Below, in pieces: positions 1,649-53,890 of a stretch of 64,000 nucleotides of DNA (position 1 is its first letter; the number at the start of each line of letters is the position of its first letter). The stretch is taken from IMG/VR virus record IMGVR_UViG_3300026737_000001. The stretch is one strand, 5' to 3'. Position numbers and translations under genes: made by a program. This DNA is from a virus. Lineage: Duplodnaviria; Heunggongvirae; Uroviricota; Caudoviricetes. Under the pieces are notes generated by a model. The model searched no databases. It had not been told where the DNA came from and was given only the letters and a program-made list of their open reading frames with translations.

Positions 1649-4600
1649 TTGTCATTAGACTACAGTATTGAGAGTAGAGATTGGGGTAATACAGATGTAA
1701 ATGTTAATGTAACTGACCCTGATGGGTTTAATGGGGTTAGGCATGATAACAAATATACTGCCCTTAATTTTGATGGTGTTGATGATTATGTAGAAATGTC
1801 TACAATAAGACCACAAACAGGAGCATTAACTATCAGTGCTTGGGTTAAGTTAAAATCATATTCAACTAATGGTGTTAGTTTTATAGGTGGTGAAGGAAAT
1901 ACTAGCAGTCTTGGATATTGGCTTGGTATCAGGAGCAGTGGAGAACCAACATTCGCATTAGAATCCCAACTCAATGCTAGTTCGAAAATTTCATTAAATG
2001 AACCAGTTTACATAACTGGTGTATGGGATGGCTTAGAGCAAAGAATTTATATAAATGGAGTTTTGAGCAACTCTATTTCAACCACAATAAGTGTAATTGA
2101 TTATACTGATATTGCACCATTTAGGTTGGCTAAAATTACATCACTTAATACTAACAGGCTTTGGTCCGGAAAAATAGGAAGATTTGAATTATGGGGCAAT
2201 GCATTAACCGAAACAGAAATAAATAAATATATGAGAAAAGCTCCATTTGGTACCGAGTCAGGCTTAATATCTTTTTGGGATATAAATAATAATAGCGGAA
2301 CAACAGTTTTTGACATGGCAGGAACAAATGACGGTACAATTTATGGAGCTACCTGGACAGATACTAATTTTTTGGAAGGTCAATTTAATAATGCAAAAGT
2401 TATTGATAATAATTTAGAACTAATAAGATTTAATAATTATGCTAGCTATAATATAGATAAAGATATTGTTGATTTATATAGTGGAACCAGATACCCTCCT
2501 GCTACTGATAACTATACATACAGAGATGATGGTAGAATATATTCTTCATTATATGTTCCAAGAGGTACTGAAAATATTATAGCAACAAAAGCAACTACAG
2601 CCTTGTGGGGGGCTGGAGGTTTTGAAGGTGGAGACTGTGAAGTTATAACTGACACAAGTTGTCCTGTTGGTGATGGAAAAGTTATTAAATTAGATGCAAC
2701 CACAAATACTAGCTTTGAAGATTTAGGCTCTGTTACATTTACAGATACAGAACTTAATACTGGAGATATATATACTCTATCTTGGTGGTTTAAGGGCAAT
2801 TCCCAACCGGCTTATGCTGATAGAATATACTACACTGATGGCACTTGGTCAAGGGCTACAAAAACGTGGAAATCTCAACCATCTCCTGACCCTAATAATT
2901 GGCAGTATTATGAAGTAGAGATGTTAATACAAGATAATGGAGGGAAGACATATTCTTCTTGGAAAGTACCAAGATTTTTTTATGGTTCTACTGATGATAC
3001 AAGCATTGGATATTTTTCACCATTCCAACTTGAAAAAAAGTCTTATGCAACAGACTTTATTAATGGCACTAGAACAGGTGCTGGATTATCTTATACTCCA
3101 TCATCTTTTGGAGTTGATTTTAATAGTAAAAATTGGACAGTAATGGCCTGGGTTAAATATGGAGAGACAATTACGGCTGGTACACGTTCAACAGCCTTTG
3201 AGCTTGGAAGTTACTATATAGCAGGAGAAACTGATATAGGTGTAGGCACTAGGACATCTACCAACAGACTTAATCTTTATGGTTATGAAAATAAAGCAGG
3301 GCAATTTGGAGGAGGTATTAACTTAACCCCATCAGAGGCTAAGGACTGGATATTAGTTGCTTTAACCTGCAATAGCTCTAAATTAACACTTCATACAGTG
3401 TCAAATGAAAGCGGCTATCAGAGTGTGACTGATGATGCAAATTGGGATACCTCTGCAAACCCTATTAGGGATAATTTATTTGTTGGCAGGTATGGGTGGA
3501 ACAATGGAGAAATTAATGGAAATATAGAGGATTTAGTTGTTGTTCCATATGAAATAACAGGCTCACAAATAGAAAAGATTGGTCTCCAGGCAGAAAATGC
3601 TGCTGGAATCTCAAGTGGCTCCTATATCTCAAAACAAATTGATTTGTCCAACATGAACAGTGTTTCAAATAGCAATATTTCATGGGGGTATGGTTTTAAT
3701 AATTCGTATTATATTGTTGGGACAGGGATGGAAGATAACAACTCAGCCCACAGCATATTAATTAATGGAGCAGAAAAATCACTAGATTCAAGAGGTTTAA
3801 ATTTAGTTAGGTTAGACAGTAACGGGGACTACATAGAAAGTAAGAGTTATGACACACATGGAAGTTCTGCAGAAAGTGATGCTTGTGCTACATATATAAA
3901 TGGGTTGCCAAATACTGATTATTTAATAGTTGCATCTCAAGACCAGGCTGCTGGGGCGGCTTCAGGAGCAAGTTCTGGTAATTTGACTCAATCCTGTATT
4001 GATGCTATAGCAAATAGACTTTCTAGCACATCTATATCTACTTTGGAATATAGAAGTAATTGGTTAATTTTCTCAAAAATAGATGGAGAAAAAATTGTTG
4101 AAAAGTATAGAAGTAGACAAACAGGGAATGTTAAGTGGGCTCATGACATAAGCGTGGAAACAAGTGCAGATAATCAAGCAACTTGGCAAAGTGTTAGTAA
4201 CGGAGGGCAAATTCAAAGTTCTATGAATTCAGCAGACTCCCTTTATATAAAGGCAACATTAAAAACTGAAGATGGAACAGTAAGTACTTTTTTAGATAGT
4301 CTGACAGTAGAGATAGAAACCCCGATTCAATATAAGTGGGATTCAAATACAACAACCCCCTCCTTGTGGGATGAAATAACAGCAAATCCTGTAACACAAT
4401 CTTCCGACGGAATCTGGTATTTGCATACAAAATATTTTGAAAATAATGAACCAGTTACTGAGTATAAAGGTACTTTCAATATTGACAAAACTCCGCCAGT
4501 ATCTCCAAATGTAACATTAGTAAATAATACCAGCCATTCACTTTCTCTAAGCTGGACGGCTGAAGACAGCCTGAGCGGCCTTGATTATGTCCGACTTTAT

Positions 4601-19852: not shown

Positions 19853-20167
19853 TAGTAATGTTTTTATCTTTTTTAGAAATACCATAGCTGATTTATCCTG
19901 TTCTTCAACAATCTCTCCATTTTTAAACAATATAAGTTTCGGAAGTCCTTTTACGTTATACTCTTCAGCTAAAGCCTCAAAAGAGTCAACATCAACTGTG
20001 TAAATATCAAACTTATCAGCATACTGGGCCATTAACCTTCCTTTAAGTTGCTTACACTTTCCACACCATTTAGCGTAAAAATCAACCACAACATGTTTGT
20101 CCTGATTGATAAAGTCCTCGAATTCCTCTACAGTTGTAATCTCTATCATTAATTTAATTCCTCCCAT
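19850..20167 (-). CDS. thioredoxin with atypical CGKC active site
   Basis: 'VVDFYAKWCGKCKQL' is the Trx fold motif (WCGPC in canonical Trx). 105 aa. Confidence 0.7.
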   Translation of the reverse strand: MGGIKLMIEITTVEEFEDFINQDKHVVVDFYAKWCGKCKQLKGRLMAQYADKFDIYTVDVDSFEALAEEYNVKGLPKLILFKNGEIVEEQDKSAMVFLKKIKTLL

Positions 20168-20568
20168 TGTTTACTTTCACTATTAAAACTTTCTATTTTT
20201 AAATTACTATCACTCATCCAGGCATCAACTTCTTTTTCTAGTTTCTTTTTATAGTCATCAACACCCTTTAGAGCATAGCTTGTTTTAAGCTTATGCCATT
20301 TTTTAAATTCATCTGTCTTTACAAGTCTTTCAAGTGCAGCCTTTTTATTCTTAGCCTGAGTCCTGTGGTTTCTTGACTCGGCCACAGCCCCTGACTCTTT
20401 ATGTCTAATTCTGACACCAGTTTCTCGTGAGTTTTGGTTTTGTCCGCCCGGGCCACCAGAGCGAAAAGTCTCAATTTCTAAGTCGTTTTTAGTTACAGAA
20501 AATAGAAGCTCCTTACTCATTGTTGTCATCATCCTCTTTTTTATAGTTTCTGCATTTACCCTTCTCAT
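20149..20568 (-). CDS. ArfB/ICT1-like peptidyl-tRNA hydrolase (GGQ-domain ribosome rescue factor)
   Basis: 'FRSGGPGGQNQNSRETGVRIRHKESG' is the RF-1 domain GGQ motif. 139 aa with a basic C-terminal tail, like ArfB/YaeJ. Confidence 0.6.
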   Translation of the reverse strand: MRRVNAETIKKRMMTTMSKELLFSVTKNDLEIETFRSGGPGGQNQNSRETGVRIRHKESGAVAESRNHRTQAKNKKAALERLVKTDEFKKWHKLKTSYALKGVDDYKKKLEKEVDAWMSDSNLKIESFNSESKQWEELN

Positions 20569-26963: not shown

Positions 26964-28085
26964 CTATCTTATACCTAAATCTAATTTGCCTTGTTTTAAA
27001 AGATTTTTACTAGCGTTTATATCCCTGTCGTGATTTGCACCACACTCACAAGTCCAAGTGCGAACTGATAAATCTTTGACTTTAGGATTTTTAGTACCAC
27101 ATTCTGAACAGGTTTGACTACTAGCAAAAAACCTATCTGCTTTGTGTAATATGCAATTATACCACTTGCTTTTGTATTCCAGCATTGTAGTAAACATATT
27201 CCAGGCACAATCAGAAATATGTTTTGCAAGTTTAGAATTTTTAAGCATACCTTTTACATTTAAGTCCTCTATGACTAAAAGTTGGTTCTCCTTTGTTAGA
27301 CTAGTTGACAGTTTATGCAAAAAGTCTTTACGAATATTTTTGATTTTTTCATGAACTTTAGCAATTTTCTTTTTAAGTTTATACCAATTGTTACTACCTT
27401 CTTCTTTACGAGCTAACCTTCTTTGTAATTTAGCAAGTTTATCTTGATATTTAGAAAGGTGCCTAGGATTTGAAATATGTTCACCATTAGAAGTAGTTAA
27501 AAAGTCTTTAATTCCTAAATCTAATCCTAATTCACATTGATTATCTTTAACAATAGTTACTAAGACTTGTTTAACATTAATTGATATATAATATTTACCT
27601 GCTCTAGATTTAGAAACTGTAACATTATTAATTTTACCTTTAACCTCTTTAGATTTAGCAAACTTAATCCAAGATAGTTTTGGTAGTTTAATCTTATTTT
27701 CTTTAATTTCAATATTTGTTGTACCACTAGGTCTAATGAATTTTTGTGTTCTATATGATAGCCTAGCTTTTCTTTTAGATTTAAACTTAGGATAATTATA
27801 TTTACCACTAAAGAAATTCTTAAAAGCTCTATCCAGGTCTTTAAGACTTTGCTGTAAAGCTATACTATCTACTTCTTTAAGCCACTCATATTCTTTTTTT
27901 AATTGAGGCAGTTGTCTGGAATATTTAGTATATGATTGATAATTTTCTTCTTTAGTTTTTGCTAAAAATTCGTTGTAAATGAATCTAGAACAACCAATAG
28001 TTTTATCAATTAATTCTTGTTGTTCTTGATTAGGATAAATTCTAAACTTATATGCTTTGTTAATTGGCTTAAATTTTTTAATCAT
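26964..28085 (-). CDS. tnpB: TnpB (IS605 OrfB-family RNA-guided nuclease/transposase accessory protein)
   Basis: N-terminal HTH 'YKFRIYPNQEQQELIDKTIGCSRFIYN', RuvC-like core, and C-terminal zinc finger 'CSECGTKNPKVKDLSVRTWTCECGANHDRDINASKN'. Confidence 0.85.
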   Translation of the reverse strand: MIKKFKPINKAYKFRIYPNQEQQELIDKTIGCSRFIYNEFLAKTKEENYQSYTKYSRQLPQLKKEYEWLKEVDSIALQQSLKDLDRAFKNFFSGKYNYPKFKSKRKARLSYRTQKFIRPSGTTNIEIKENKIKLPKLSWIKFAKSKEVKGKINNVTVSKSRAGKYYISINVKQVLVTIVKDNQCELGLDLGIKDFLTTSNGEHISNPRHLSKYQDKLAKLQRRLARKEEGSNNWYKLKKKIAKVHEKIKNIRKDFLHKLSTSLTKENQLLVIEDLNVKGMLKNSKLAKHISDCAWNMFTTMLEYKSKWYNCILHKADRFFASSQTCSECGTKNPKVKDLSVRTWTCECGANHDRDINASKNLLKQGKLDLGIR

Positions 28086-28132
28086 TATGTTTGCCTCTTT
28101 TCTATGTTGTTAACTACATTATATCATTGTGT

Positions 28133-28160
28133 TGATATGTTGTCAACTATATGATATAAT
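28133..28160 (+). promoter_or_regulatory. sigma70-type promoter with extended -10 (TTGATA-16-TGaTATAAT) for the RHH gene
   Basis: Seen directly. Followed by RBS AGGAGG (28167-28172) and ATG 28181. Confidence 0.6.
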
Positions 28161-30968: not shown

Positions 30969-30997
30969 TTGACAATCAAAATCGTACGAGATACAAT
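30969..30997 (+). promoter_or_regulatory. sigma70-type promoter TTGACA-17-TACAAT
   Basis: Seen directly. Followed by RBS GAGGTGAGG and ATG 31017. Confidence 0.55.
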
Positions 30998-31016
30998 TAA
31001 TACAGAGGTGAGGTAT

Positions 31017-31244
31017 ATGTCAAAAAAGAAAAAAATAGAAAGAATAGAATTCAGTGGCACTATTGACCCCGACCTGTATTATGAAATTAAGATGCTTTCT
31101 TTAAGGCTTAGAAAGATTGGTATTAAGCGTAATATAAATGAATTAACCGAAGAAGGATACCGTTATATCCTTAAAAAATATTACTCAAAATACCAAAAAC
31201 TAGGCCAGTCACACTCTAAGTATGTCGAAGAAGATTTAGATTAA
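31017..31244 (+). CDS. small basic protein (start moved from the listed 30948, which would include the promoter)
   Basis: 'MSKKKKIERIEFSGTIDPDLYYEIKMLSLRLRK...' with a terminator immediately downstream. Confidence 0.45.
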   Translation: MSKKKKIERIEFSGTIDPDLYYEIKMLSLRLRKIGIKRNINELTEEGYRYILKKYYSKYQKLGQSHSKYVEEDLD

Positions 31245-31273
31245 GAGGCGGAATTACCCGCCTCTCTTTTTTT
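31245..31273 (+). terminator. rho-independent terminator
   Basis: GAGGCGG-aattac-CCGCCTC followed by TCTTTTTTT. Confidence 0.7.
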
Positions 31274-31438
31274 ACAATGAATTTTTCATCTCCCAAATAA
31301 GCCAAGCTACCAAGAATAAAAACCCCTCAAGTAATAACTTGCCCGACAAAGCAATGTCTGCCAGTAAAAATGATACTGCAATCAGGAAAAATCCAAATCC
31401 TCCAATCATTAGTCCTATAAAATCCTCATCAAACATCA

Positions 31439-34871: not shown

Positions 34872-34941
34872 ACAGCAACACCTTCTCCACCAATAATATT
34901 AGACACATTTTCAGCATTAATAGATTTTATAATTTCTTTCA

Positions 34942-35187
34942 TTATAAAACACCGCCACATAAAACATAATCCAATAATCTTTCGTATTGTTTTTCTGAAA
35001 TACTATGCTTTATTCTGATGTTAGTCTCTATGTACCCTTTTGGTTTTTGTTTTTCCTTATTCTTATAAATCTCCATTGCTTTTTTTAAACTTTCTCTTTT
35101 CTTTTTATTCATTTCGTCTACATCTCCTTTTGTTTTCGGAGCATAATAAAACCCACTGCTGCTAGAGTCTTGGCAAGTATCCAGCAA
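34942..35187 (-). CDS. hypothetical protein
   Basis: ORF. Confidence 0.3.
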   Translation of the reverse strand: MLDTCQDSSSSGFYYAPKTKGDVDEMNKKKRESLKKAMEIYKNKEKQKPKGYIETNIRIKHSISEKQYERLLDYVLCGGVL

Positions 35188-35224
35188 ACAGTGGGCGAGA
35201 ATAGGAAAAACTTTTAAATAACCC

Positions 35225-35254
35225 TTGACTAATATTATCTATATGTGTTATTAT
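35225..35254 (+). promoter_or_regulatory. orphan + strand promoter TTGACT-18-TGtTATTAT inside a - strand gene block
   Basis: Seen directly. No + strand CDS downstream before the terminator at 35326. Confidence 0.4.
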
Positions 35255-35260
35255 TAATCC

Positions 35261-35358
35261 AAGAATTAAACAATTAAATGGTTATTTTTGTTTTTTCTGT
35301 TTGTTTTAGTTTATTTTTGTTTGCTGGAGTGACTTGGTGGGTCGCTCCTATTTTTTTT
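35261..35358 (+). ncRNA. candidate ~100-nt small RNA (promoter to intrinsic terminator), U-rich
   Basis: Bounded by the promoter above and the hairpin GGAGTGAC-ttggtgg-GTCGCTCC plus T8 at 35326-35358. Confidence 0.3.
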
Positions 35359-35448
35359 GTTTTAATTTTAGTTTGATAAGTATCACTCTACATACTACAT
35401 ATTTTATAATTTAACTATAACACATTCAATATTAATGTGCAAATAATT

Positions 35449-35673
35449 TTACTTTTTATCTCTTATAGCTTCAGCGGCTGCAGACACAGCATCGTTGAAG
35501 TTTTTTATATATGTTCTTACTGTTTTTCCGCTCATATCAACCCTGTATTTTCTAGTCTTTTCATCTTCTGGAATTATAGAATATTCATTTATTATTGATA
35601 TGGTAGCAGCAATCATTGATTCATCATCATATACAGTCCAGTCTCCATTATCTTCTTTTAAAGTTTTAATCAT
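35449..35673 (-). CDS. hypothetical protein
   Basis: ORF. Confidence 0.3.
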   Translation of the reverse strand: MIKTLKEDNGDWTVYDDESMIAATISIINEYSIIPEDEKTRKYRVDMSGKTVRTYIKNFNDAVSAAAEAIRDKK

Positions 35674-35972
35674 TTTTTACCTCCTTTTCTCAAATCATAA
35701 AATAATATATACTCAGGATAACCAAGTAATTTAGATAGGCTTTCTTTATTTTCTTCATTGGGATTCCTGCCTTCAAAAACCCATGCCTGAACAGTTCTGG
35801 GACTAACATTTATTATTTTAGCTAAGTCAGAAATCTTCAAGTTAAGCGAAAACATAATTCCATATAATATTTTATTCTCTACATTCCACTCTCTCAACCT
35901 TCTAAAAGATTTTTTCTTTCCACCTTTTATTTTATTAGATATCTTTTTTCTTTCTTCTTCAAAAGAAGCCAA
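35670..35972 (-). CDS. XRE-like helix-turn-helix DNA-binding protein
   Basis: 'ISDLAKIINVSPRTVQAWVFEGRNPN' HTH. Confidence 0.5.
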   Translation of the reverse strand: MASFEEERKKISNKIKGGKKKSFRRLREWNVENKILYGIMFSLNLKISDLAKIINVSPRTVQAWVFEGRNPNEENKESLSKLLGYPEYILFYDLRKGGKK

Positions 35973-38107: not shown

Positions 38108-39182
38108 CTAATTAGCTTTCTTAAAGAAATCTCCTTCAATCAATTTAACTTTATCAACCAGCATTGCATTACTTTTATCTTTTTTACCTTCAAGTTTTAA
38201 TTTAAAACCTTTTTGAAATAAGTCATGATTGGAGCGATATGTGTCCGGAAAAACTACAAGTTTAATCTTATTTTTATCTGTTTTAACTTTTGCAAAAGCC
38301 ATTAATTTATTTGACTTTCTGGTTTTAACCTCTTTAGATTCTGTAATTATGCCTTCCACCTCTAAGACCTCTCCGCTTTTAGCAAAATCCCATTCAGAAG
38401 GATAGGTTAAAGATAAACCGATTGTGTCCATTTCGAATTCAATAATTTCTTCTTTTGTGGGTTCTGGTTCGTCAAAAACTCCAGAACCTTCCTCATTTTT
38501 GAAGGCATCAAATAGTGACTGCCTCATCTGTCCAAACTCTTTAATAGTCTTGTAATCTACAAGTAATTGTTTTCTGTTTTTGCCGAATGAATCCATTGCC
38601 CCAGCTTTAATTAAAGATTCAAAAGCTGTCTTATTAACAACTCTTGTATCAACCTTCTGGTACATATCATCTAGGTCTTTAAACGGTCTTTGATTCATTA
38701 TTTCGGTGCTTGCTTTTTTACCTAAACCATCAATCGCATTTAAACCCAGTCTTATCTTCCCGTTAACAGCTGTAAAGCGCCCTTCTGACTCGTTAATGTC
38801 AGGAGGTAGTATATCTATCTTCTTTTTATAGCAGTCCGAGAAATAGTCCGTAATCGAGCTGTCAGAGCCACTCTTTGCTGCTTCAACACTCATGATAGCT
38901 GCATAGAACTCTGCCGGAAAATGGTATTTAAGGTAAGCAGTGGCATAAGATATTAATGCATAGCAAGCAGAATGTGATTTATTAAAGCCATAGCCGGCAA
39001 AATATTCGATTAATCTAAACATTTCATCAGCAAATTCTTCTGTGTGGCCATTTTCTTTAGCTCCTGCTTTAAACTTAACTTTCATTTTTTCTAATACTTT
39101 TATTTTCTTTTTTCCCATTCCACGCCTTAATATATCTGCCTCTCCCAGGCTGAAGTTAGCAATTATCTGTGCAGTTTTCATT
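38108..39182 (-). CDS. dnaE: DNA polymerase III alpha subunit DnaE, exon 3 (C-terminal part)
   Basis: '(V)MKTAQIIANFSLGEADILRRGMGKKK' corresponds to DnaE 'YQEQVMQIAQ...LGEADLLRRAMGKKK'. The codon is completed by splicing (see intron). Confidence 0.85.
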
Positions 39183-40758
39183 CAATTATGTTATCGCAAA
39201 AGCTTTTTATCTTCTGCTTCTATATCTGCTATCTTTACAAATATAGTTCGGCATACATTTTCACCTTATTTAAGGTGTCGAACACTCGTGGAGAGATTAT
39301 ATTTTACATATAAATGTAAGTTCACTCTCTATGCTCTACGGTATTAACAGATTTTTAGGTCTATTAATTACCTCGGTATTATCACATATAATATCCATTC
39401 TTTTTCTTTTTCTTGGTAGCCAAATATTAGCATCTTTGTACATGTATTTATATAGCTTTTTAGAAAATGATATACCACTTTGAAAGTAATATAGATTAGT
39501 ACTTTTATGGATTGTTTTATTGCTTTTTATTACCTTTTGTATAGATTTAAGCATTTTTTTATTTCCACAAAACCCACTTCTCTTACTTTTTTTGATGCAA
39601 GTTATGCCATCTCCATCAAAAAACCCTCTAATAAAGTGTCTATACATATTATCAGGTATTTGAAAGGGAAATGATTCTTTTCCCGTCTTATTAGGTATAA
39701 CACCATATTCAAATAATTTTTCAGTCATATGTCTTGATGTTAAGCTACATCTGCAACAGTAACCTTTTTTTGAATATCCAGAATTTTTACCAACATAAGG
39801 ATTAAGAGAACTTTCTAAGTGGCTTAAAAACCCATAAATAATCTCTTTGTCCTTTAAGGCTACACCTAATTTTATAGAATATTGACCATTATAGATAGAA
39901 GTGTTTCCATCAGCCATTAAAAAACCCAAAAAATAAGCTTTTTCTTCTTTGTTTATTTTATCAAAAAAATCTTCTTTTTTTATGCTATTCTCTAATCCTC
40001 TTTTTATATCAAAACCTTCTTTCTTTAACCATAATGAAATAGTGTTTCTATTAATACCTGTTTCAGTTGCTATTTCACATAAATATAATCCTGATTTATA
40101 AAGATTAACAACTCTTTTTTTATAAACATCTTTATATCCTATTTTATCCCCATGATTAAATTTTGAATTTTTTGTTAGTCCAGCATTTCTTAAATATTTA
40201 TACACTGTACCAACACTTATATTCAATAATTTTGATATTTCTTTTCCAAACTTACCTTCATTATAAAGGTCCATTATTTTTTTGATTTTATATTCACTTA
40301 TTTTTTCAGTTTTTTTAGATTTTTGTGGATTTTGTAAACTTATATCAGATTCATTAATCCATTTATAAATTGTACTTCTGCAAGGCATAATTTCCATTTT
40401 AGAAATATCAGTAACAGAAATGCCATCGCCATACATGTTTAATGCTTTTATTTTGCGTTGACTACTTTTCATCTTTATCACCTTCTACATATTGAAAGAG
40501 TATATACCTAACCATTTCAGAAAAATTAATTCCTTTTTTGTCAGCTATTTTTTGAATGTCTTCTTCCAGCTGTTCCGGTAAATAAATATTTCTTCTTTTC
40601 ATTTTTATCATCTCCAACGTGTGGTATTTGTATCACCTTGCATACATTATTATAACACACATTGAATCATTTTTCAAATTATGGATATTTAGATAGTGGC
40701 TTCACCGATTTTGCTCGATAATAATCTAGCTTATTTCTAAGCTGGACGGCAATTTCTT
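39183..40758 (-). other. group I-like intron in dnaE (intron 2), 1576 nt, carrying a LAGLIDADG HEG
   Basis: Exon 2 ends '...CAGGU' (U before the 5' splice site). The intron ends '...AATTG' (terminal G). Joining gives CAG GTA ATG = Q-V-M, restoring the conserved DnaE YQEQVM. A stop codon follows the exon 2 junction in frame. Confidence 0.7.
39336..40481 (-). CDS. LAGLIDADG homing endonuclease (double-motif) with N-terminal HTH modules, intron-encoded
   Basis: 'YFLGFLMADGNTS' and 'FIRGFFDGDGITC'. Confidence 0.8.
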   Translation of the reverse strand: MIKMKSSQRKIKALNMYGDGISVTDISKMEIMPCRSTIYKWINESDISLQNPQKSKKTEKISEYKIKKIMDLYNEGKFGKEISKLLNISVGTVYKYLRNAGLTKNSKFNHGDKIGYKDVYKKRVVNLYKSGLYLCEIATETGINRNTISLWLKKEGFDIKRGLENSIKKEDFFDKINKEEKAYFLGFLMADGNTSIYNGQYSIKLGVALKDKEIIYGFLSHLESSLNPYVGKNSGYSKKGYCCRCSLTSRHMTEKLFEYGVIPNKTGKESFPFQIPDNMYRHFIRGFFDGDGITCIKKSKRSGFCGNKKMLKSIQKVIKSNKTIHKSTNLYYFQSGISFSKKLYKYMYKDANIWLPRKRKRMDIICDNTEVINRPKNLLIP

Positions 40759-42710
40759 ACCTGTTCCTGGTATACTAGGTAACCGTATGTTTCCTCTAAT
40801 TCCTTTTTTAAACTTTCGTGTGGATATTCTACTTTTTCATTACCGTGCATTCTGTCGAAATATTTTTCCACAATACCAGCTTCAAGTGGTCCCGGGCGAC
40901 CGAGAGCAAGTATAGCAATTATATGCTCGAACTTTGTAGGTTTCATTTTCTTTAACAGCCTTTTAAATAGTTGTGATTCTACCTGAAAAACCCCGTTGGT
41001 ATCAGCCTTCTGATAGATGTTTTTATATACATCTTTATCATCAAGAGGTAAATCCCAAATGTTTTGTACTGTAGGCTTATACTCTAAGCTATCATAATCT
41101 TTTCTGTTCTTGATAAACTTAATAGCCTCACCTATGATAACAACAGTCTTTAACCCTAAGAAATCCATCTTGAGCAAACCTAAATCTTCGCTATCGTGCA
41201 TCTCTGTCTGAGTTACATATGTTATCTCACCAGTCTGGCTGTTTTTGGTTCGTGCTAAAGGTGTGTAATCATCAACAGGCTCTGGAGTAATAACAACTGC
41301 TGAGGCATGTGTACCTAACTGTCTAGGCTTACCTTCTAGCTTTTGAGCTATATCGAATAGTTTTGGATACTGTTCAGCATACATCTTAAGTTCTTTACTT
41401 TCTTCCAGTGCTTCCTTGATTGAAATACCTGGGGTATCGGGAAATGCCTTTGATATCTCTTTATTCATTAGATTGTAATCATATCCTAATACTCGGCCTA
41501 CATCTTTAACAGCTGATTTAGCACCTAGTGTACCAAAGTTACAGATACTTGCTACATTTTCTTCTCCGTATTTGTCGATTACATACTGGATAACTTTTCC
41601 TCTATTTCCAAAATCTATATCAATATCAGGCATAGCAGTTCTTTCAGGATTTAAGAATCTTTCAAACAGCAGTCCATACTTAACAGGGTCTAAGGCTGTG
41701 ATGCCTAAAAGATAGGATAGAAGTGAGCCTGCTGCAGACCCTCGACCAGGACCAACAATGATGTTATTATCTTTAGCCCACTGAACATAATCTTCAACAA
41801 TTAAAAAGTAGGCAGGATACCCCTTCATATTTATAACCTCAAGCTCTGTATCAAGCCGTCTGGCGTATTTATCCATATCAATGTCTTTTTCTACAGCCAA
41901 CTCAAAAAGCTTCTTAAAGGCCCTTTCTTCAAGGTATGACTCAAGTGTATAACCTTCAGGAACTTCGAACTTAGGAAGGAGTAAATTACCTAAATCAAGC
42001 TCGACTGTATCACATTTATCGGCAATTTTTACTGTATTCTCAACTGCACTATCTCTGGCATCTATAAAATCAGACTCTACACTTTTTGCAAAAAGCTGAC
42101 TTTTTATCTCATCTTCACCCTTAAAATAGTATGAATCTCCATGAAATCTAAATCTGTCATTATCTTCAACTTTTGCCCCTGTTTGAATACATAGCATAAC
42201 GTCATGAGCTTCTATACTGTCCTTTTCTAGATAGTGCATATCTGATGTAGCTACAAGCTCTATATCTAATTTTCTAGCTAAATTTGCAAGCTTTGAGTTC
42301 ATTACGTACTGCTCTGATACATCGTTGGCCATAATCTCTATATAGAAATCATCACCAAAAAGTTTTTTATATTTTAGAGCTATTTCTTCTGCTCTTTCAT
42401 TGTTGTTATTCTCTAAGGCTCTTGGTATCTCTCCTGCAAGGCAGGCAGAACTTACTATAAGTCCTTCAGAATGCTCTTTTAAAATTTCAAAATCTATTCT
42501 TGGTTTATAATAAAAACCTTCTGTATTTGACTTACTCACCATCTTAAAAATATTATCCAATCCTTTTTTATTTTTAGCAAGGATTATAAGGTGGTGTCTT
42601 TTACCTTCTTTATCATGCATGTCATTAGCTACATATACTTCAATTCCAAATATATGTTTAATTTCTTCTTCTTTGGCTGCTTTATAAAGCTCTACGAAAT
42701 TATGGATACT
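40759..42710 (-). CDS. dnaE: DNA polymerase III alpha subunit DnaE, exon 2 (PHP remainder plus polymerase core)
   Basis: 'GPGRGSAAGSLLSYLLGIT', 'FLGLKT', ends 'GYLVYQEQV'. Confidence 0.85.
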
Positions 42711-43840
42711 CAATTGTGTTATCCTACAAGTTTTTTACCATGTAGTTCTTGCAGTTCATTTCCTGCAAGTTCAGCATACCTTTTGCCCACCAGCATTACC
42801 TGTGAGGACAGGAGTCTCTTGGAAAAATTATATTCTTTAATACAAATTAAAGTTTCATTTTCTATGCGTTGCCCCTGACTAATATTTTAAAATTAGCCTT
42901 CGGTTCGGATTGGCTTCTCAGCTTTCCCGCTTAATACTCCTGTAATAATTCTAAACATTCCTGTTTAGAACGGCAAATTTATCATGTTTTCTCTTTAAAT
43001 ATATATTAGCATCTTTATATAGGTAGTCTTTAATTTTCAAAACAGCAAGCCTTCCTGACTTTCTTATTTTGTACATATCAGATTTATGAAATTTTGGTTT
43101 TTGCATAAATATATCATTTTTTTCAAACTCATCAGATATTTCATTTAGCATATCTTTATAGCCCATTATATAAAATTCACAATTTAAAGAGTTCTTGTGA
43201 TGGTTATCATTTCTTATTGAATATGATATACATCCATCACCGTCAAAGTAACCTCTTATAAAATGATTCATATATTCTTCTTTTATATTTGGTAATGAGT
43301 TTGTGTTTTTTACACCTAGTTTTATTAAGTCTTGATATATTTTTTTATTGGTAAAAGACAGAGTATATTGTCCAATATTACTATATCTATCCTTTCTTGG
43401 TTTAATGTAATATAATGGACCTGCATAACCAACTTCATTTTTTACATCTAAAAGAAGTTTTTTATCATCTTCTTTTAAACCAATAGAGGCCACATAACTT
43501 CTTCCTGAAATATATACGCTTCCATCTGAATAAAATAATCCTAATATATAGGCTTTCTCTTTAGAATTTATTTCAGAAAAATATTTTTGATTTATTTTAT
43601 ATTGTGGTTGACCTCCTGGATTTCTTGATTTTATATTATACTCTTTGAAAGTCGTTTGTATTTTTGAAGCACTTACATTAAAATATTTTCCTATATCTTT
43701 ATGACTTAAACCATCATTATAAAGATTTTTCATTTCATTAATTTGTTTTGTAGAAAAAATAATTTTTTTAGTAATTTTTATCACCCTCTTTAGCTTAAAG
43801 GTGCTAATATATTTATAATTATAACATGATATTAATGTTT
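42711..43840 (-). other. group I-like intron in dnaE (intron 1), 1130 nt, carrying a LAGLIDADG HEG
   Basis: Exon 1 ends '...GAC CAC GGU' and the intron ends '...CACAATTG'. Joining gives 'TDHG|SIHNFVELYKAAK', collinear without gaps with Firmicute DnaE 'TDHGNMFGAIEFYKAAK'. Confidence 0.65.
42951..43784 (-). CDS. LAGLIDADG homing endonuclease, intron-encoded (paralog of 39336..40481)
   Basis: 'YILGLFYSDGSVY' and 'FIRGYFDGDGCIS'. The N-terminal HTH resembles the other HEG. Confidence 0.8.
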   Translation of the reverse strand: MIKITKKIIFSTKQINEMKNLYNDGLSHKDIGKYFNVSASKIQTTFKEYNIKSRNPGGQPQYKINQKYFSEINSKEKAYILGLFYSDGSVYISGRSYVASIGLKEDDKKLLLDVKNEVGYAGPLYYIKPRKDRYSNIGQYTLSFTNKKIYQDLIKLGVKNTNSLPNIKEEYMNHFIRGYFDGDGCISYSIRNDNHHKNSLNCEFYIMGYKDMLNEISDEFEKNDIFMQKPKFHKSDMYKIRKSGRLAVLKIKDYLYKDANIYLKRKHDKFAVLNRNV

Positions 43841-53053: not shown

Positions 53054-53890
53054 TTATTTTATATTTTTTAATCTTCTATAGATTGTCATCGGAGTTTTAT
53101 CCAGCATATCTCCTATTTCTTCAACAGTTTTGTTATTAACTAAGTACTCATTAGCTATTATTTTATTCTCTATGTTCTTATCTTTTATTTTTTCAAGTTT
53201 ATTTCTGATAGTATTAATCCTTCTTGAAATTGATGATTTAGATTTTCCTAATCTCTCACCTATTTCGTCTAAGATTAAATGGTCTTCAAATCTTAGTTTT
53301 AAAATTAACCTTTCTTCAATTGTTAAATCAGAAAATCTATTGTTGCATGTATTTCCATTAACCCAATCTCTATCAATACTTGTTTTTGAAACTTCATCTT
53401 TTTCTGTGACTAAAAATGGATTTTGCATAGGCCACTTTTCTATATTATCTGATAAAGGTTCTGTCTTTACATTGTCTACTGTATTGTTTTTTAGTATATA
53501 AGGAAAATAAATTGACAAGAAATAATCAAATGGACTTTCAACTTCTTTTCTTTCATCATATTCTGATATATCAAAAACATCTAAAGAAATTAAAAAAGAT
53601 AATTTTACATCCTGATAGACATCTTCAAAATCATATGCTGAATATATTGCGTTAATAACACTTACAACATTGGTTAATTCTTCTACTGAAGAGCTGCCTC
53701 CTGGCTGAAGAAGTCTAAGAAAGTTTTTAACTGAAGTGTTGCTTTTATAAGAGCCGTGATAAATAAGCGAAACAAAGTTTTTTATGAATGCATCATACAT
53801 GTCTAAAAGTTTTTGTCCTGACTCTTTATTTCCTTTTTTGTATTCTTCTATTAGCTTTAGTTTTTCACTCATCATAATTTCCCTCTTCAA
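53054..53890 (-). CDS. phage-encoded RNA polymerase sigma factor (sigma-70 family, region 4 duplicated)
   Basis: 'LILKLRFEDHLILDEIGERLGKSKSSISRRINTIRNKL' and 'EIGDMLDKTPMTIYRRLKNI' HTHs. Confidence 0.5.
   Translation of the reverse strand: MKREIMMSEKLKLIEEYKKGNKESGQKLLDMYDAFIKNFVSLIYHGSYKSNTSVKNFLRLLQPGGSSSVEELTNVVSVINAIYSAYDFEDVYQDVKLSFLISLDVFDISEYDERKEVESPFDYFLSIYFPYILKNNTVDNVKTEPLSDNIEKWPMQNPFLVTEKDEVSKTSIDRDWVNGNTCNNRFSDLTIEERLILKLRFEDHLILDEIGERLGKSKSSISRRINTIRNKLEKIKDKNIENKIIANEYLVNNKTVEEIGDMLDKTPMTIYRRLKNIK

Follow-up and report, generated by a model that had tools for sequence, protein, structure and literature searches.

The window (the whole stretch of 64,000 nucleotides [nt] that we analyzed, IMG/VR virus record IMGVR_UViG_3300026737_000001) is the genome of a large phage. 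Its structural block is on the + strand and includes an open reading frame (ORF) of tape-measure size (2,100 amino acids [aa]), and a 44-kb − strand block begins at about 19.8 kb. Within the − strand block, a 336-nt noncoding gap separates the stop codon of a 74-aa ORF (35449) from the start codon of a 56-aa ORF (35112). The second gene of the operon, behind the 56-aa ORF, encodes a 322-aa DnaD-like replication initiator or helicase loader, with PHROG matches to DnaD-like helicase loaders (2e-15), replication initiation proteins (2e-9), and O-like proteins (1e-8) and a Pfam DnaB_2 match below threshold. No ORF with a ribosome-binding site (RBS) lies inside the gap, which houses a short + strand promoter-to-terminator unit. 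The sequence-only reading of this DNA had described that unit as an orphan. We found instead that it is nested in antisense orientation in the leader that precedes the replication genes. A promoter-like site and a terminator of the − strand flank it there, and it overlaps sequence able to block formation of that terminator. From these features, and by analogy with known plasmid systems, we think it probable that the unit codes for a countertranscript of about 98 nt that brakes the replication-initiation operon by transcription attenuation. The features are collected in Table 1.

Table 1. Position of the predicted antisense unit, the proposed attenuator, and the adjoining genes in the window
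Feature	Coordinates	Strand	Details
Antisense RNA promoter	35225-35254	+	−35 TTGACT 35225-35230, 18-nt spacer, TG 35246-35247, TATTAT 35249-35254
Predicted antisense RNA (countertranscript), ~98 nt	35261-35358	+	5' end placed 7 nt past the −10, 3' end placed where the T-run ends
Intrinsic terminator of the antisense RNA	stem 35326-35348, T8 35351-35358	+	10 pairs, 5 of them G-C
Hydrophobic ORF, 32 aa	ATG 35278, stop 35374-35376	+	judged not to be a gene; MVIFVFSVCFSLFLFAGVTWWVAPIFFVLILV
Promoter-like site for the sense leader	35443-35414	−	TTTGCA-18-TGnTATAGT, 9/12 with TG
Untranslated leader of the replication operon	35113-35407	−	predicted start near 35407
Pre-emptor (5' partner of the antiterminator)	35336-35318	−	CAAGU-CAC-UCCAGCAAACA
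Segment of the attenuator 5' arm that pairs with the pre-emptor	35190-35174	−	UGUUUGCUGGA-U-ACUUG
Attenuator (long terminator hairpin)	35196-35151/2, then 35151-35143	−	hairpin followed by UUUUAUUAU
56-aa basic ORF	35112-34942	−	proposed first controlled gene; RBS AAGGAG 35129-35124
DnaD-like replication initiator/helicase loader, 322 aa	34871-33903	−	proposed main controlled gene; assigned by PHROG
74-aa ORF	35673-35449	−	upstream flank of the gap
Small helix-turn-helix (HTH) gene, 100-aa protein	35670-35972		upstream of the 74-aa ORF

The + strand promoter proposed in the sequence-only reading, TTGACT-18-TGtTATTAT, is present where it had been placed and scores 10/12 with TG, its −10 element being of the extended type. 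That reading had also put a strong intrinsic terminator about 70 nt farther on, and this is borne out: the stem, GGAGTGAC(TT)/(GG)GTCGCTCC, opens 71 nt past the −10 and is followed by the T8 run. In 40 kb, the two strands together contain only about 10 promoters with a score of 10/12 or more plus the TG, and from those counts we estimate the chance of finding one no more than about 120 nt upstream of a given same-strand terminator at roughly 0.015. The + strand terminator is itself one of about five strong terminators in 40 kb. The only other strong + strand terminator in the − strand block closes a + strand gene (31017-31241) that has its own promoter.

The predicted RNA folds with an energy of −20.3 kcal/mol (z = −3.5) into a U-rich, weakly structured 5' part followed by the terminator hairpin. 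This hairpin (35326-35348) has a stability of −14.2 kcal/mol as + strand RNA and −9.3 kcal/mol as − strand RNA; its three G.U pairs turn into C.A mismatches on the − strand. The long hairpin at the other end of the gap has the opposite polarity, with −25.3 kcal/mol as − strand RNA and −19.2 kcal/mol as + strand RNA. Each hairpin thus gains about 5 to 6 kcal/mol on the strand on which it is followed by a U-run.

The − strand hairpin closes the leader of the replication operon, the fold of which has a z score of −4.0. It appears in every leader fold that reaches past 35155, although a simple terminator scanner missed it owing to its internal loops, and an A/G polymorphism at the base of its stem (35151) gives a G.U or a G-C pair on the − strand RNA only. 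Transcription could enter the leader from the promoter-like site listed in Table 1 or from a second candidate at 35429-35401, and read-through from the 74-aa gene, with no terminator between, can also feed it. The promoter-like part is swapped for a ribbon-helix-helix (RHH)-type gene in two of the relatives described below (L184 and L133), which places it outside the conserved core. Between the U-tail of the hairpin and the RBS of the 56-aa ORF there are 13 nt, and our scan found no promoter-like site there. As none fits into that interval, the replication genes would need read-through of the hairpin to be expressed.

Such read-through could be allowed by an alternative pairing of the leader. 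An 11-nt perfect inverted repeat joins 35318-35328 and 35180-35190, and with a further 5 bp the pre-emptor can pair with the 5' arm of the attenuator over 11+5 bp. In the 64 kb, the exact 11-mer is confined to this locus, where it is present once per strand. The pre-emptor lies inside the antisense-covered stretch and overlaps the complement of the + strand RNA terminator, that is, the 3' arm of the mirroring leader hairpin. When nascent leaders were folded, the antiterminator helix formed in those ending at 35178 to 35160, and the pairing probability of the pre-emptor was 0.96 in those ending at 35172 to 35160. The energy of the duplex (−21.8 kcal/mol) was reached by 4 of 2,000 dinucleotide shuffles of the leader, and the perfect 11-mer by none of 2,000. 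The fold with the terminator (−53.7 kcal/mol) and the fold with a forced antiterminator (−50.7 kcal/mol) are 3 kcal/mol apart, and in these models such near-isoenergetic alternatives are consistent with what a kinetic switch requires.

The sequence-only reading had made its candidate RNA depend on conservation of the region, and the region is indeed conserved in close relatives, its architecture being kept in more distant ones as well. Nineteen metagenomic or assembled contigs carry the gap at 96.7 to 100% identity (at least 99% in all but L081). The core (35152-35387) is invariant in all 19, including the + strand promoter, save for one T lost from the T8 run in L081. These contigs represent at least three haplotype backgrounds. 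Their DnaD-like allele is either of 322 aa or of 317 to 320 aa at about 50% identity, and the gene upstream of the 74-aa ORF encodes either the 100-aa HTH protein or an unrelated 132-aa (zinc-ribbon-like) protein. Even the 74-aa gene differs at 27 of 225 nt while the core stays identical. A 755-bp block (34940-35695), comprising the 74-aa ORF, the leader with its antisense unit, and the 56-aa ORF, is shared at 94 to 100% identity with differing flanks and sharp mosaic breakpoints near 34940 and 35695, and so forms a nearly identical cassette amid shuffled neighbor genes.

One further contig, L184, carries part of the element. It encodes a 75-aa protein 63% identical to the 74-aa protein, after which other genes follow, and the distal end of the element (A-run, hairpin, and pre-emptor) stands directly after an RHH-type gene at the end of the contig. 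When the 56-aa ORF and the L184 RHH protein were used to look for homologues, only near-identical or self matches came back, and the L184 copy remains partial.

To look further afield, we searched both strands of the 800 nt that precede the DnaD-like gene for terminators at 160 distinct loci. Besides the window type, three lineages (L133, L105/L124, and L095/97/98) showed the same arrangement: an antisense terminator, a terminator or RBS hairpin near the start codon, and pairing of pre-emptor type. In L133, the antisense promoter is TTGACG-17-TGaTATTAT (10/12 with TG), the terminator is GGAGTAGC...GCTGCTCC plus TTTTTCTTT, and the predicted RNA is about 58 nt long; the sense hairpin includes the RBS and is followed by U6 and the start codon. 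The L105/L124 lineage has the antisense promoter TTGCAA-18-TATAAT with TG (10/12), a 12-pair antisense terminator with a predicted RNA of about 55 nt, and a sense terminator whose 3' arm bears the RBS. L095/97/98 have an antisense terminator, a candidate antisense promoter of 10/12 lacking the TG, and a sense hairpin of −22.8 kcal/mol with a U-tract; about 23 nt separate its end from the RBS that follows, and 32 nt separate it from the estimated start of the gene.

In all three lineages the 5' arm of the sense terminator pairs with a segment covered by the antisense RNA, in the nascent as well as in the full-length free leader. Shuffles reached the duplex energy in 31 of 1,000 cases for L133, 4 of 1,000 for L095, and 0 of 1,000 for L105. 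When the antisense target was masked in silico, the minimum-energy fold flipped to the complete terminator in L133, L105, and L095. L133 can also be aligned to the window in part, over the −35, the extended −10, the 5' end of the RNA, and the motif UUUUGUU(U)GC-GGAGU. Relative to L133 (GGAGUAGC/GCUGCUCC), the antisense terminator stem shows two compensatory pairs, one G-C to A-U and one A-U to G-C, and keeps a U.G pair. The pre-emptor helix shows matched one-base deletions on both sides (CCAGCAAACA/UGUUUGCUGG versus CCGCAACA/UGUUGCGG). These changes were read by hand from the sequences, as MAFFT alignments misplace gaps in the stem. The U-rich middle part of the + strand RNA is missing in L133 and L105.

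The attenuation that we propose would run as follows. Sense transcription would enter the leader of about 300 nt, either at the promoter-like site or by read-through from upstream, and the pre-emptor would be transcribed first. About 127 nt later the 5' arm of the attenuator would emerge and pair with the waiting pre-emptor, so that the terminator hairpin would be blocked and the polymerase would continue into the 56-aa ORF and the DnaD-like gene. Were the antisense RNA abundant, it would pair with the leader over 35358-35261, including the pre-emptor; the terminator would then form, and transcription would stop 13 nt before the RBS. As the antisense RNA would be made from every copy of the genome, synthesis of the initiator would be tied inversely to genome dosage or to the time after infection.

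Several of our own results weigh against this interpretation. Among real genomic segments, 15 of 638 match the energy of the pre-emptor duplex, which makes its significance only moderate. The full-length minimum-energy fold of the window version already holds the terminator, and read-through would consequently rest on a kinetic trap, which is beyond proof by folding energies. Promoter-like hexamers are not enriched (22 observed, 22.5 in shuffles). Real promoters may deviate from the sigma-70-type consensus that we used, and because the phage has its own sigma factor, scans of this kind may overlook part of its promoters. In the close relatives, about 130 nt of the 56-aa ORF belong to the identical tract as well, so that recent recombination is inseparable from purifying selection there, and the invariance of the core means that covariation was not obtainable among them. 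Homology of the L133 element is only partly recognizable, with a whole-element alignment score about 2.3 standard deviations above shuffles, and the assignment of the L095 antisense promoter is weak. The operon also opens with a 56-aa ORF of no matched family and not with the initiator itself. Finally, in the phage we saw no partition or integrase genes and many genes of nucleotide metabolism, and a large phage of such gene content has no obvious need of "copy-number control."

Other explanations of the same signals have to be set beside attenuation. A cis-antisense RNA might act by another route, namely, RNase III cleavage and decay, interference by convergent transcription, or action in trans via its U-rich part. 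The evidence of promoter and terminator fits this equally well; the promoters converge about 160 nt apart, as pII and pIII of pIP501 do, the U-rich 5' half is weakly structured, and the position between regulator-like genes and an initiator resembles that of oop (PMC12197685). We nevertheless consider it unlikely, since it leaves unexplained both a strong sense terminator directly before the RBS and, in four lineages, the complementarity of that terminator's 5' arm to the antisense-covered leader. The RNA overlaps no coding sequence either, the 74-aa ORF ending 90 nt past the T-run, and the absence of the U-rich middle from L133 and L105 means that this part is not the conserved functional core. 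It is quite unlikely, in our estimation, that there is no regulatory RNA at all and that the locus consists of back-to-back terminators or insulators and chance hexamers in AT-rich DNA, with an unrecognized downstream promoter, for example, one dependent on the phage sigma factor. The frequency of promoter-like matches, no higher than in shuffles, and the phage's own sigma factor would agree with this, as would an unrelated phage family that carries the same stem simply after a structural gene. A + strand terminator would, however, be without purpose in a 44-kb − strand block unless + strand transcription begins nearby. In three lineages (the window, L133, and L105), the antisense terminator is immediately preceded by an antisense promoter of at least 10/12 with TG, and both the pre-emptor complementarity and the switch induced by masking recur. 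We give still less credence to a replication origin or primer transcript, in which the AT-rich, A-tract-phased interval would be the origin and the + strand transcript would activate or prime it. The stretch 35280-35325 is about 80% A+T with phased T/A tracts and adjoins an initiator gene, and the 11-bp inverted repeat could be a protein-binding site. Against this, neither iterons nor repeated boxes were found; contigs in which the initiator is exchanged for an allele of about 50% identity have the very same interval, which would be unexpected for cognate sites; L133 and L105 lack the T-rich stretch; and the strand-asymmetric G.U pairs argue for a function at the RNA level.

The last alternative concerns the 32-codon ORF that opens inside the + strand unit. 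If the + strand RNA were the mRNA of this peptide and the overlapping − strand transcript its antitoxin, the locus would resemble a type I toxin-antitoxin pair; in favor of this, the short peptide consists of hydrophobic residues throughout, and the opposite-strand transcript covers the whole RNA. The sequence-only reading had noted an all-hydrophobic ORF of 32 aa with no RBS and a stop past the terminator, in all of which it was correct. The sequence upstream of the ATG (CAAGAATTAAACAATTAAATG) has no Shine-Dalgarno element, and with a stop codon that is reached only 16 nt after the T-run, a transcript ended by the terminator would be a non-stop message. The ORF is missing from the counterpart RNAs of L133, L105, and L095, and internal ORFs in the L133 RNA are of 5 codons at most; in the close relatives the ORF region is identical DNA and thus uninformative on conservation of the peptide. 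The peptide has no PHROG match and no charged residue, and to our knowledge characterized type I toxins do have charged residues. Hydrophobic ORFs are common on the T-rich + strand of the window, and this one is most likely a by-product of T-rich sequence. The toxin-like peptide that the earlier reading had kept in play can now be largely rejected for want of an RBS, an in-transcript stop, and conservation in distant relatives, and we regard a toxin-antitoxin pair as extremely improbable. The same properties, together with the promoter and terminator, support that reading's preference for a small noncoding + strand RNA over a peptide gene. We hold it to be very likely, judging from the sequence, that a noncoding + strand RNA is made, and the would-be hydrophobic micro-ORF can be set aside as noncoding.

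Attenuation by antisense RNA of initiator genes is textbook plasmid copy control, and it is with such plasmids that the attenuation proposed here can best be compared. In pT181, an 87-nt countertranscript faces the leader of the initiator mRNA; a terminator-like stem-loop precedes the start codon, and a pre-emptor pairs with its 5' arm unless the antisense RNA is bound (PMC5703833). The four-segment logic proposed for the window (antisense target or pre-emptor, the 5' and 3' arms of the terminator, and the RBS) is exactly the one known from pT181, and pIP501 and pAMβ1 use it too (PMC4981023). The countertranscript, the leader stem-loop, and the pre-emptor of the pT181 RNAI/repC system all have counterparts here at the sequence level, and stem-loop IV of pT181 contains the RBS, as do the L133 and L105 hairpins. 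The differences are that the present element is known from sequence alone; that it has no sequence or Rfam similarity to the system of this rolling-circle plasmid of Staphylococcus; that the element sits in a large phage and not in a small plasmid; that its initiator is DnaD-like and not of the Rep_trans type; and that a 56-aa ORF precedes the initiator. A second parallel is pIP501, with a 329-nt leader, a 136-nt antisense RNA (RNAIII) that induces attenuation, convergent promoters, and a small DNA-binding repressor gene (CopR) upstream (PMC4981023). Like pIP501 and pAMβ1 (Inc18 theta plasmids), the window has a leader of about 300 nt, promoters that converge about 160 nt apart, and the small HTH gene upstream; the gene directly before the element in L133 and L184 is RHH-like (below the Pfam cutoff). 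The upstream RHH repressor gene of pMV158 offers a further parallel to L133 and L184. Here, however, proteins and RNAs are unrelated in sequence to those of pIP501, the element is not on a plasmid, and the upstream small proteins parallel the repressor by position only. The plasmid location that marks the pT181/pIP501 class, in which such circuits set copy number and incompatibility, is absent, the genome being that of a phage (tape measure, DnaE, NrdD, sigma factor). By analogy, then, the element would work like the pT181/pIP501 systems without belonging to either plasmid family.

Comparison with other antisense systems shows more distance. In pSK41, whose initiator has DnaD-like folds, the antisense RNAI is about 83 nt long; its target in the leader lies about 100 nt ahead of the start of translation, and its binding makes a stem-loop form at the RBS of that initiator (PMC5703833). 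That RNA of a RepA_N plasmid is reported to act on translation, in contrast to the hairpin plus U-tract found here, and Pfam and PDB sequence searches gave no match of the present initiator to RepA_N. Among phages, the nearest analogue is the CI RNA of the satellite phage/plasmid P4, which brings about premature termination upstream of replication genes by RNA-RNA pairing (PMC4825925). In P4, CI is processed from the sense transcript, pairs with seqA/seqC, and serves prophage immunity in a Gram-negative host; here, the candidate regulator is on the opposite strand with a promoter of its own, and the 11-mer occurs once per strand, with no repeats of the seqA/seqC type. Lambda OOP, also a short antisense RNA, is transcribed from its own promoter to its own terminator between regulatory genes and the initiator gene; it overlaps the 3' end of cII and leads to decay by RNase III (PMC12197685). 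In contrast to OOP, the RNA predicted here ends near 35358 and the 74-aa ORF ends at 35449, so that it has no coding overlap and faces a leader terminator.

We found no description in the literature of antisense attenuation in phage replication modules, and a 2025 review of phage-derived small RNAs never uses the word attenuation (PMC12197685). If the proposed attenuation is real, phages use a plasmid-style dosage feedback on the initiation of replication. With four or more diverged versions found, the elements would also be a compact, sequence-novel set of natural RNA switches of transcription, a kind of switch that interests synthetic biologists as a source of orthogonal parts. A much broader proposal, which we put forward as speculative and doubtful, is that countertranscript attenuators are a native, so far undescribed replication control in large phages of anaerobic Firmicutes-like hosts. 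They would make up a modular cassette of antisense RNA gene, pre-emptor, and attenuator that travels among phages and plasmid-like replicons, with or without DnaD-like initiators. It would serve as a lytic genome-dosage timer, ending initiator synthesis as copies build up, and possibly in RNA-based incompatibility or superinfection exclusion. A resident or first phage could in this way block the replication operon of a coinfecting relative, since the RNA would act in trans and mosaic relatives share an identical cassette.

Database searches did not connect the element to any known RNA. A search of the whole 64 kb against Rfam 15, including the plasmid countertranscript families, gave no match at gathering thresholds, and a permissive Rfam search of 34900-35700 gave only chance-level matches (E from about 0.7 upward). 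No tRNA or tmRNA was detected by ARAGORN. There was no blastn match of the region to the INPHARED phages or the PLSDB plasmids, no match in IMG/VR to the exact 32-nt pattern, and no nucleotide similarity to the element at 80 IMG/VR loci with DnaD-like genes. Matches to a degenerate hairpin pattern came from five contigs of an unrelated phage family, in which the hairpin is a plain terminator after a structural gene; we rejected them as convergence, not homology. These contigs (L201 to L205, IMG/VR gut or oral phages of about 52 to 57 kb plus one 8-kb fragment) have stem arms identical to those of the window, GGAGTGAC/GTCGCTCC, and a T-run, and could mislead pattern searches.

The host is probably Halanaerobium, judging from a 52% identical initiator in a Halanaerobium polyolivorans contig and a short identical stretch in Halanaerobium saccharolyticum. 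The former (L161, high coverage, 47.5 kb; 1687-3960) and a metagenomic contig (L085, 1759-3951) carry the initiator, about 52% identical, directly after genes for a ParA ATPase and an RHH-repeat protein and without the antisense unit, and look like plasmid or phage-plasmid replicons. The stretch in H. saccharolyticum (L183, NZ_SNWX01000009.1, 3001-3054) encodes only the last 18 residues of the DnaD-like protein, at 100% aa identity, and could be what is left of a prophage or a scar of recombination.

The 56-aa ORF, annotated as 56 or 81 aa by gene callers on related contigs, had no family match in domain and PHROG searches. A second + strand unit within the − strand block, at 30969-31275, has the promoter TTGACA-17-TACAAT (11/12), the RBS GAGGTGAGG, and a strong terminator (31244-31265). 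Its 75-aa ORF (31017-31241) is a real gene with RHH_3 similarity below threshold, and the protein is 39% identical to the RHH-type protein (P0007) that directly precedes the element in L184. The RHH-type protein ahead of the L133 element resembles that of L184, as judged by eye only.

Elsewhere, the − strand block codes for a split DnaE, RecJ, anaerobic ribonucleotide reductase (NrdD), thymidylate and guanylate kinases, and dCTP deaminase, as well as Erf, RuvC, a DnaB-like helicase, the sigma factor-like protein (53054-53890, − strand), and an RF-1-domain (peptide chain release factor-like) protein (20149-20568, − strand). The DnaE gene is in two parts (38108-42713, − strand), the N-terminal 658 aa at 40737-42713 and the C-terminal 357 aa at 38108-39181, with a gene for a 381-aa HTH/LAGLIDADG-like endonuclease (39336-40481) between them; DnaE is intact, with 1,009 to 1,050 aa, in several relatives (L185 and L192 to L194). 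The interruption could be a homing-endonuclease, intron, or split-gene event, and a second endonuclease of the identical PHROG lies at 42951-43784. A gene for an IS200/IS605-type TnpB-like transposase (26964-28085; PHROG 506, E = 5e-132) is adjoined by divergent, overlapping near-consensus promoters at 28118-28160, which score 12/12 and 11/12, each with TG.

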